From Escherichia coli (lineage in GTDB: Bacteria; Pseudomonadota; Gammaproteobacteria; Enterobacterales; Enterobacteriaceae): a stretch of 64,000 nt of DNA. Position numbers: made by a program. Location: the NCBI RefSeq assembly GCF_003018235.1, contig NZ_CP027437.1, one strand, 5' to 3'. This document shows, one piece after another, positions 33,001 through 36,000 of the stretch (position 1 is the first letter of the stretch; each line of letters opens with the position of its first letter).

Positions 33001-36000
33001 TAACGCTGATTATCCGTGCGGTCATCGCCTGATGCGACGCTGACGCGTCTTATCATGCCTACAAAAATATGCCCGAATCGTAGGCCGCCTCCGCTATATT
33101 AACTGGCATTGGCAAATTACTCGTCACTACCTTTATTCATGTTTTTGGGTCTTCATCCGGATAATGTTTTTTTAGATATTCCAGGACGTTTTTATTGACC
33201 TTGTGTTGCGTATACACCCACCCTTTCCAGTAATCAGGCTGGTCCAGGTAAACTTCTGGCGGAATGGTGAAATCAGAAAGCGTTAACCATTCGGCTAACA
33301 GATCGGGGTTTCGTTTCTGGATTAACTGCAACAGCATAATCAGTGACATAGCTGAGGCAGGAGCCGTACTATCACCACTCAAATATTTCCACACTGTTGA
33401 CCGGTTCGAACGAAAAAGGATCGGTAGCAATGCCCGGTCCAGATTCATTTCATTAAAAATCTTCTCAAATTCATTCATTTAAATTTTCCTGCCTGGCGTA
33501 AACCTCTTAAAAATTGAGATTTATCAAAGAAACGCATTTTAGCACACATCAGGAACCGCTTCACGTTTAGTCCAGAAACAGAATTTATTTCGCTTATCAA
33601 AACAAGTCTTTACTCTTTTTTACATTGAAAGAGCACAAAATGATTTTCTATTTTATTTATATAAGAAACATTTTTTGTTTCTTATTGGTGATGTTTACGC
33701 TTACACCAGACAAAAATGCGCTTTACATCACACAAATGGCGGCGTAGATTTCGATCAAATTGCAACGCAGATTAATTCTTATAACAACGTTTTACGTTGC
33801 TTATAGAAACAAATATGTGACTTACTTTGAAAGAGAAAAAATGCATGAAAACTGTAAAGCTGTCTTTACTGGCTGTCGTTGTTGCTACCGCGGTAAGTCC
33901 ATCTGCGTTTGCGGGTGATACTGTTGAGGCGGCAACGACAGAATTAACGGCAATCCAGCCAGGAATGTCGCAATCGGAAATTGATCAGAAAATTGGTCGA
34001 TTTTTAGAAAGGACAGGGAATAGTGCAGCCGCACAAAATTATCTGATTGCGCATGATTACCGGACAACGACACCTCAGGAAAATACAGCTGCCTCTCCCG
34101 TACAGCCCGCCAATACGCTGAACCCGATAACCAATCAAGCGCAGACCGACCGCGACAACGGGCAGGATACCGCCATTCAGGACGCACAACATGCCGCCAA
34201 CTGGGCTTCAATGAAAGCTGATGACGCGCAGCACGCCATTATGGTGGCGCAGACGGATATTGATGCCAATAAAGCCGCCATCGCCGACACCCGTAATGAT
34301 GTCTCCGCAGTGCAGTCAGACGTCACCAACATAAAAGGCGATGTCGCACATGCCCAGTCAACGGCTGACCATGCCAACGCTAACGCCAACACCGCTCTGA
34401 TGAACGGCGTCAAACTTTCCGGTGCTGTGACAGAAAACAAAAATAATATCGAACAGAACCGCAGCGATATTGCTGACCAGCAGAAACTGTTGGCATCAAA
34501 CGAGCAAAAACAGACCGACCGCGACAACGGGCAGGATACCGCCATTCAGGACGCGCAACATGCCGCCAACTGGGCTTCACTGAAAGCTGATGACGCGCAG
34601 CACGCCATTATGGTGGCGCAGACGGATATTGATGCCAATAAAGCCGCCATCGCCGACACCCGTAATGATGTCTCCGCAGTGCAGTCAGACGTCACCAACA
34701 TAAAAGGCGATGTCGCACATGCCCAGTCAACGGCTGACCATGCCAACGCTAACGCCAACACCGCTCTGATTAACGGCGTCAAACTTTCCGGTGCTGTGAC
34801 AGAAAACAAAAATAATATCGAACAGAACCGCAGCGATATTGCTGACCAACAGCAACAACTCGACGAAACCCGGAAAATCGTTGCCGCCACCGGGGATGTG
34901 CAGACTGCCGCCCGATATCAGAGCATGATTGACGCCAGACAGACAGCCGCTGCCAATGCGCAACAGGCACAAGCTGACACCCAGCAGCAACAAATGGACG
35001 ATCAGCAGAAACAAATCGACGCGACGCAAAAAACGGTTTCCGCACTTGGCGATGCCCAGACCAACGCACATTATCAAGAGATGGTTAACGCCGGACTGAG
35101 AGCACAAAATGATGCGAATGCGCGTACTGCAGCAGAACAAAAACAAAAAATAGATACTCTGGCGACTAACCAGGCAACACAACAGCATATCGATAGTGTG
35201 CAGTACGGGGAACAAATTCAGCGTCTGGCGCAAGACTCAACGCAAACGCATGAACAAATTGACAGCCTGACACAAGACGTAAACCAAACGCATCAGCAGT
35301 TAAGCAACACGCAAAAACGAGTAGCGGATAATAGCCAGCAGATTACTACGCTCAATAACCATTTCAGTTCGCTGAAAAACGAAGTTGAGGACAACCGTAA
35401 AGAAGCCAATGCGGGAACTGCATCAGCCATCGCTATCGCCTCACAACCACAGGTGAAAGCCGGTGACTTTATGATGGTGTCAGCGGGAGCGGGAACCTTC
35501 AACGGTGAATCTGCGGTGTCTGTCGGAACATCTTTTAATGCCGGAACGCATACCGTGATTAAAGCCGGTGTCTCTGCGGATACGCAATCTGATTTCGGCG
35601 CGGGTGTCGGCGTGGGATATTCTTTCTAATATTCCAATCCTCAATATAAATAAGAGCATGGAAGCTTGCCGGGTTTCACCGCTTTATTAACTCGCACATT
35701 ATTTAAGGTTAACAATGATGTATAGCTCCATTAAATCGTTTTCCCTGCTGGCGGTTATATTACTGGCTGGCTGTAGCTCTCCCACTTCCCGCATCGCAGA
35801 TTGCCAGGCGCAGGGCGTCAGTCATGACACCTGTTATCTCGCAGAACAACAGCGTCAGGCGGCTATTTTAAGTGCATCAGAAGCGCAGGCATTTAAAAAT
35901 GCAGAAGCCGCACAACATGCCCAGGCCGCTAAAAAATCTATTTATAAAGGATTTGGTGTAACTTTTAGAATGAGCAGTAAAAACTTTGCTTATCTCAATG

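Follow-up and report, generated by a model that had tools for sequence, protein, structure and literature searches.

Why should a surface-protein gene of Escherichia coli carry, in tandem and in frame, two stretches of more than 300 nucleotides (nt) that are almost identical, and does such a pair record a duplication that has only just occurred or one state of an older array that changes in length? The question is raised by a 64,000-nt stretch of E. coli DNA (NCBI RefSeq assembly GCF_003018235.1, contig NZ_CP027437.1; one strand, read 5' to 3'; referred to below as the window), in which a plus-strand gene for a YadA-like trimeric autotransporter (TAA) runs from an ATG at 33845 to 35629, stop included, and encodes a protein of 594 amino acids (aa). 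Given the evidence set out below, we think it probable that the pair is the n=2 state of an in-frame array that varies in copy number within the predicted helical stalk of this protein, and that the array is driven by recombination and kept homogeneous by gene conversion.

The repeat itself is well defined. Tandem Repeats Finder reports window positions 34142-34856 as a tandem repeat with a period of 369 nt (1.9 copies, 98% matches, 0 indels, score 1395), and a repeat search likewise returned 300-nt copies at 369-nt spacing. When the window was compared with itself base by base at an offset of 369, positions 34142-34479 were identical save for three mismatches (3/338): A/G at 34186/34555, which is synonymous in an Ala codon; A/C at 34211/34580, which changes ATG to CTG (Met to Leu); and G/T at 34402/34771, which changes ATG to ATT (Met to Ile). 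A fourth difference between the copies, synonymous in a Gln codon, lies at 34480/34849, and similarity between the copies collapses from 34484 onward. The first copy of the repeat unit, which we call X, therefore occupies 34142..34483 on the plus strand (342 nt, 114 codons, QTDRDNG...SDIADQQ), and the second, with its four differences at 34555, 34580, 34771 and 34849, occupies 34511..34852 on the same strand (also 342 nt); between them lies a 27-nt plus-strand linker, KLLASNEQK (34484..34510). Chance is impossible as the origin of such identity over 338 nt. The original prediction, made from the sequence of the window, had described near-identical tandem copies with about three differences over some 340 bp, including one M/L and one M/I change, and the offset comparison bears this out; alignment of the copies gives 98.8% identity over 342 nt (98.8-99.1% as the high-identity range), above the level of about 95% below which that prediction was to be given up. 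Where it spoke of two consecutive 123-codon units it was correct about the 369-nt period, which corresponds to 123 codons and so keeps the frame, but X itself has 114 codons and the linker is present only once. The array in the window is two 342-nt X units plus a single linker, not two complete 369-nt units.

If the pair is one state of a variable array, other states should be found among isolates, and they are. A single 369-nt unit was searched by megablast against 5426 complete E. coli genomes, each unit being counted as a separate place, and it matched 350 genomes at 610 places, with one to five matches per genome and a median of two. The distribution was read from an evenly spaced sample of 60 of the 350 matching genomes: one match was found in 24/60, two in 29/60, three in 5/60, four in 1/60 and five in 1/60. 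We then had 13 alleles to compare in full, namely the window and 12 fetched loci whose open reading frames (ORFs) were translated from the conserved start. One unit corresponds to 471 aa (1190, T-HYM1 and D8), two to 594 aa (GF43, ST69, ETEC6335, EC1515 and the window) or, with a 14-aa deletion, to 580 aa (N3), three to 717 aa (042), four to 840 aa (AST215 and VCSW7) and five to 963 aa (18KM2445). Each added unit brings one added linker, and all 13 alleles, from one unit to five, are in frame with the anchor intact; forms of 717, 825 and 962 aa are independently present in the protein database. The expectation that stalk length would vary between isolates thus holds, with 1-5 units in complete genomes and ORFs of 471-963 aa. 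As a count of the locus, 350 is a minimum, since the region of the lipoprotein gene that follows the TAA gene was found in 1416 genomes; in the remaining locus-bearing genomes the match to the locus query falls to 80-90% identity, and they probably carry more divergent single-unit alleles, like the 459-aa E. coli form. A 161-nt query spanning the X-linker-X junction, tried as a way to find genomes with at least two units, was uninformative: single-copy genomes also scored as full matches, the BLAST pieces having been joined regardless of order.

Two further lines of evidence speak to how the array changes. The first concerns close relatives. The five-unit allele of 18KM2445 and the four-unit allele of AST215 have nearly identical flanks, with 2/1797 and 6/1377 differences on the two sides (8/3174), and therefore unit number changes between close relatives. 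The second concerns the units themselves, in which (i) copies in one genome can be identical (0 differences, AST215 units 1 and 2) or can differ at as many as 20 of 342 nt; (ii) the 50 polymorphic sites in X form a patchwork across positions and strains; (iii) the four-gamete test is failed by 160 of 528 informative site pairs and (iv) neighbouring sites are more compatible than in 5000 of 5000 permutations of site order. Individual polymorphisms tell the same story of exchange. At the synonymous positions 34444/34813 and 34447/34816 both units of the window have T and both units of GF43 have C, and the M/I polymorphism, carried by unit 2 of the window, is found in unit 1 of GF43. Most internal copies elsewhere begin with QIV, yet unit 2 of the window, like unit 2 of AST215, begins with QTD as first copies do, and unit 1 of N3 begins with QIV, the reverse of the usual positions. 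Unequal crossing-over alone cannot place the 5' end of a first copy at an internal position; either conversion or repeated double mutation is needed. Finally, the single-unit allele of T-HYM1 is close to 042 in its upstream part (2/1797 differences) and close to ST69 in its downstream part (1/1377), and in its one unit the 5' half corresponds to 042 unit 1 and the 3' half to ST69 unit 2, with the junction inside X. To judge by these matches, it looks like the product of an inter-allelic crossover between non-equivalent units, which would have cut the array to one unit.

The linker behaves differently from X. It is unlike the sequence that follows copy 2, and compared with the nine codons that precede unit 1 (TLNPITNQA, 34115-34141), to which it is equal in length, it gives 12/27 nt. 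If the founding duplication comprised these nine codons plus X, the junction would have diverged by half and X would have stayed 99% alike, which would mean that concerted evolution is confined to X. Alternatively, the linker may have another origin. The linker is absent from single-unit alleles, and those alleles therefore cannot be the direct parents of the array.

That the array lies within the stalk of a TAA is supported from both ends of the protein. A signal peptide, MKTVKLSLLAVVVATAVSPSAFA (33845..33913, plus strand), was read by inspection of the translation, with likely cleavage after AFA and before GD, and it is invariant across an alignment of 13 homologs. At the other end, residues 535-594 (35447..35626, plus strand) form a YadA-type C-terminal membrane anchor, with a match to Pfam YadA_anchor PF03895 at E=1e-11 and 45.2 bits against a cut-off of 22.7; in a phmmer search of the PDB, the matches to solved structures were restricted to TAA anchors, namely those of AtaA (9vnj), Hia (2gr7, 3emo) and YadA (2lme). 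Going by these sequence features the protein is a member of the TAA family, with trimerisation, surface display and adhesion as predicted properties, and E. coli genome annotation has 'YadA-like family protein' at this locus. The gene is the ortholog of Ec042-0536 of enteroaggregative E. coli (EAEC) 042, which occupies the same position. It is under purifying selection, with a ratio of nonsynonymous to synonymous differences (pN/pS) of 0.28 among the units and 0.2-0.5 outside the repeat, and is therefore not a decaying pseudogene.

Between the signal peptide and the anchor, where Pfam and NCBIfam gave no domain match, the protein is predicted to be mostly rod. An N-terminal passenger region, residues 24-99 (33914..34141, plus strand), consists of short helices followed by a Pro/Thr-rich segment; a low-confidence AlphaFold2 (AF2) model places helices at residues 24-35, 43-57 and 60-69 and leaves residues 70-93 without regular structure. 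In the AF2 monomer, built with 13 homologs, residues 94-532 form an almost continuous helix, which is interrupted where unit 2 starts (DRDNG) and twice more further on. The remaining stalk downstream of the X units (34853..35446, plus strand), predicted to be helical from the AF2 secondary structure, has internal repeats of its own that are older and have diverged: a pair of ~48-aa units, QLDETRKIVAATGDVQT... and QIDATQKTVSALGDAQT..., aligns locally with a BLOSUM62 score of 97, and Tandem Repeats Finder detects periods of 21 and 42 nt (rows 34982-35021 and 35210-35293). Residues 99-520 give weak matches to coiled-coil proteins of the SMC/Rad50 type, and a crude heptad-phase tracker finds strong heptad stretches (for example IDANKAAIADTRNDVSAVQSDVTNIKGDV) as well as discontinuities. 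The region between signal peptide and anchor is thus probably the stalk of a TAA, with the repeat inside its predicted helical middle part, and 'TAA stalk', the term used in the original prediction, seems a fair description; we infer that this stalk forms a trimeric coiled coil.

The stalk also varies in length outside the register of the 123-codon period. One variant has a 122-aa duplication that covers the end of X and the next unit of about 48 aa, and another has a 14-aa deletion between two DAQHA motifs. A gain of a 38-aa unit (497 against 459 aa) was seen in an Escherichia sp.; there is also a 418-aa form, and single-residue changes were found in a poly-Q tract.

The most likely scenario for the behaviour of the array is as follows. 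Long, near-identical units would allow homologous recombination between misaligned units to add or remove whole 123-residue modules, either by unequal crossing-over between sister chromosomes or by exchange with horizontally imported alleles; from what is generally known of how E. coli recombines direct repeats several hundred bases long, such exchange would be expected to depend on RecA. Gene conversion between units would then keep the modules alike. Each module, with about 120 helical residues at roughly 0.15 nm per residue, would add some 18 nm of coiled-coil stalk and, from helix geometry, the reach of the N-terminal end could differ by about 70 nm between alleles of one and five units. 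By analogy with Cha and the Periscope proteins, which are considered below, such differences in length may affect adhesion, masking by O-antigen or capsule, and immune recognition.

Several observations weigh against this scenario or qualify it. Copy number mostly tracks allele lineage: all 24 of the 24 sampled rows at 97.8% identity have two matches. Moreover, the exact 594-aa protein of the window, named as an E. coli 'adhesin', is found on 11 other contigs, one of them of 5.01 Mb, as an unchanged allele. Both observations imply that change in the array is slow. On the structural side, no Pfam or NCBIfam model for a head or neck (YadA head, Trp-ring, GIN, neck) matched in the TAA protein; head domains are typical of the family and not required for membership. 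The AF2 model is of a monomer with a mean predicted local distance difference test score (pLDDT) of 54 and a predicted TM-score (pTM) of 0.19, and its secondary structure alone was used; the 123-residue period is 4 mod 7, and so not a multiple of the heptad.

The data would also fit neutral drift, and this is the alternative that survives best. Copy-number variation might be selectively neutral, arising incidentally as long repeats recombine in a coiled-coil rod that tolerates it. The general association of copy number with allele lineage and the persistence of one allele on 11 contigs fit such an account, and the variants in other registers (+122 aa, -14 aa, +38 aa and the poly-Q single residues) suggest that the stalk tolerates indels. 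To go by its title, a paper on the TAAs of Brucellaceae also makes a case for non-adaptive evolution (PMC7688925). Against neutrality, all examined alleles keep both frame and anchor, and the units show a pN/pS of 0.28; in Cha, moreover, repeat number alters adhesion, as cited in PMC9704523, although none of this is proof of selection on length here. On balance we regard neutrality as a possibility to be taken seriously, to which we give somewhat less than even weight. On/off phase variation of the kind seen at simple-sequence contingency loci was considered and rejected: the unit is 369 nt and 13 of 13 alleles are in frame.

A different alternative is that the strain's own lineage gained the pair very recently, by de novo tandem duplication, the copies being alike for want of time. 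In favour of this view are the small number of differences, four in 342 nt, and a proportion of synonymous differences (pS) between the window copies of 2/75. It could also draw on the fact that the D8 lineage, E. marmotae and other Escherichia alleles (459-471 aa) are single-copy and have no linker; since these distant relatives are single-copy, the ancestor at the level of the genus probably was too. However, the same X-linker-X layout, with the 27-nt linker, is present in all multi-copy alleles examined, including those of a diverged lineage (ETEC6335, EC1515 and Shigella dysenteriae P0010) in which the X copies differ at 20/342 positions and the linker, KRLASNEHK, has two amino-acid changes. 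In EC1515 the pS between copy 1 and copy 2 is 0.158, which equals the allelic divergence between the window and D8, the deepest split sampled (0.16-0.17). In addition, a present-day single-copy allele, having no linker beside X, cannot give the structure by simple duplication, and the polymorphisms described above are swapped between copies. We therefore consider a recent duplication improbable.

The better-supported reading of the comparisons is that the founding duplication is old, because diverged lineages have the same layout together with deep divergence between copies, and that the 99% identity seen in the window reflects homogenisation by homologous recombination, because the polymorphisms are mosaic, the permutation test shows a recombination signal, the T-HYM1 unit is chimeric and first-copy codons occur in internal copies. 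The original prediction had left the choice between a very recent duplication and ongoing gene conversion: conversion is the half that gained support, and a recent duplication is unsupported as the origin of the array. An assembly artefact, in which one unit or a longer array was misassembled as two, is highly improbable: short-read assemblies do break here, as the 90% protein cluster includes 'partial' pieces (121-213 aa, from contigs 363-660 nt long), but the copies have four fixed differences, unique sequence lies on both sides of copy 2, the identical 594-aa protein recurs on the 11 contigs, that of 5.01 Mb among them, and two copies is the commonest class in complete genomes.

An islet flanked by ybbJ (NfeD family) and cueR holds the TAA gene, which is followed by a gene for a predicted lipoprotein of 140 aa with an LAGC lipobox (35715-36137, plus strand) and then by a 67-codon ORF (about 36134-36337, plus strand), both of which are downstream of the TAA gene in every locus examined. 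Neither gave a significant family match, the sole match being a sub-threshold one to TraV. The lipoprotein may have a role in TAA biogenesis, for which SadB and SadA of Salmonella offer a comparison. The lipoprotein region is present in 1416 of 5426 complete genomes, and the allele of this region in the window is at most 95.6% identical to any of theirs. Beyond cueR, on the minus strand, are genes of a type I secretion system (36745-40079; HlyD-family adaptor and permease/ATPase), adjoined by an intact ORF of 6892 codons for a giant adhesin (40083-60761, minus strand), at whose position RefSeq has the name 'BapA-related adhesin SiiEA' or 'Ig-like domain-containing protein'. The tandem repeats in this ORF (43610-44346, period 318) match one another at only some 70%, against 99% in the TAA, and its counterpart in EAEC 042 is reported to be frameshifted (PMC2808357). 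Upstream, between ybbJ and the TAA gene, GF43 and 1190 have some 100 nt more spacer than the window (33033-33844), and a minus-strand ORF within the window's spacer has 113 codons (33137-33478), compared with 120 codons as annotated in other strains. The SPFH/Band 7 gene qmcA contains a short repeat of its own (32215-32310; 33-nt period, 2.9 copies, 75% matches, Tandem Repeats Finder).

In the EAEC 042 genome paper Ec042-0536 is listed apart from UpaG and has no known function (PMC2808357), and our literature searches for Ec042-0536 and for named E. coli TAAs returned no characterisation of it; a length-variable stalk in this protein appears to be undocumented in the literature searched. In all the complete genomes examined, RefSeq (PGAP) places the start codon at an internal Met, so that the annotated coding sequences have 339-431 aa where the ORF has 471-963 aa; as a consequence the signal peptide and the repeat array go unannotated, and protein surveys and vaccine-antigen screens would miss both the true protein and its length polymorphism. 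Unit numbers taken from draft genomes are unreliable, short-read assemblies being broken or collapsed at the repeat. With regard to wider relevance, about one complete E. coli genome in four carries the locus and at least 6% carry the variable allele family, the 369-bp unit is a possible marker for simple sizing by PCR and, if stalk length affects function, the gene would offer a tractable E. coli model for the matching of surface-protein length to the cell envelope.

Variation in repeat number is already established for TAA stalks, and our finding extends that known pattern and does not change it. The repeats of Cha, a TAA of the Haemophilus cryptic genospecies, are short (28 aa), numerous and change at appreciable frequency, whereas the E. 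coli unit is of 123 aa, is present in 1-5 copies and has a number that mostly tracks lineage. The two are alike in that the Cha passenger also carries highly similar tandem peptide repeats whose number differs between variants. There, repeat number is reported to correlate with adhesion, with biofilm formation and with how far the distal end is exposed at the surface (Sheets & St Geme 2011; McCann et al. 2014; both as cited in PMC9704523). No sequence relationship between the two proteins outside the anchor was seen, no comparison having been aimed at one.

There is a further precedent in BadA of Bartonella henselae, a TAA with a highly repetitive stalk in which the domain arrays differ between isolates, an effect attributed to recombination within the repeats, and protein length on the surface correlates with gene length (PMC8859334). 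BadA differs in being built of neck and stalk domain modules, in exceeding 3000 aa and in having pseudogene donors on its flanks; the rod of the E. coli TAA is predicted to be purely helical, the protein is small, at 471-963 aa, and the surroundings of its gene showed no pseudogene copies. Within E. coli, UpaG/EhaG, Saa and the Eib proteins share with it the type Vc class and the C-terminal YadA-type anchor (PMC12525524, PMC2808357), but the ybbJ-cueR gene is at a separate locus and lacks recognisable YadA-like head or neck domains.

The Periscope proteins (Whelan et al. 2021, PMC8201768) are surface stalk proteins that are similar at the level of the DNA, with tandem repeats of very high identity that vary in number between strains and alter distal projection. 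They are, however, monomeric single-chain proteins with independently folding repeat domains, where the E. coli protein has a TAA anchor and a predicted helical repeat; a review of Periscope proteins explicitly excludes TAAs, noting that their function may be similar (PMC9704523). A tentative extension of our model, which we put forward although we think it unlikely as a whole, is that the E. coli TAA is a trimeric coiled-coil counterpart of the Periscope proteins, in which selection would match reach, in modules of about 18 nm, to the thickness of the O-antigen or capsule or to the 6892-aa giant adhesin encoded nearby, conversion would keep the array recombinogenic, and the diverged 27-nt junction would mark the boundary of concerted evolution.

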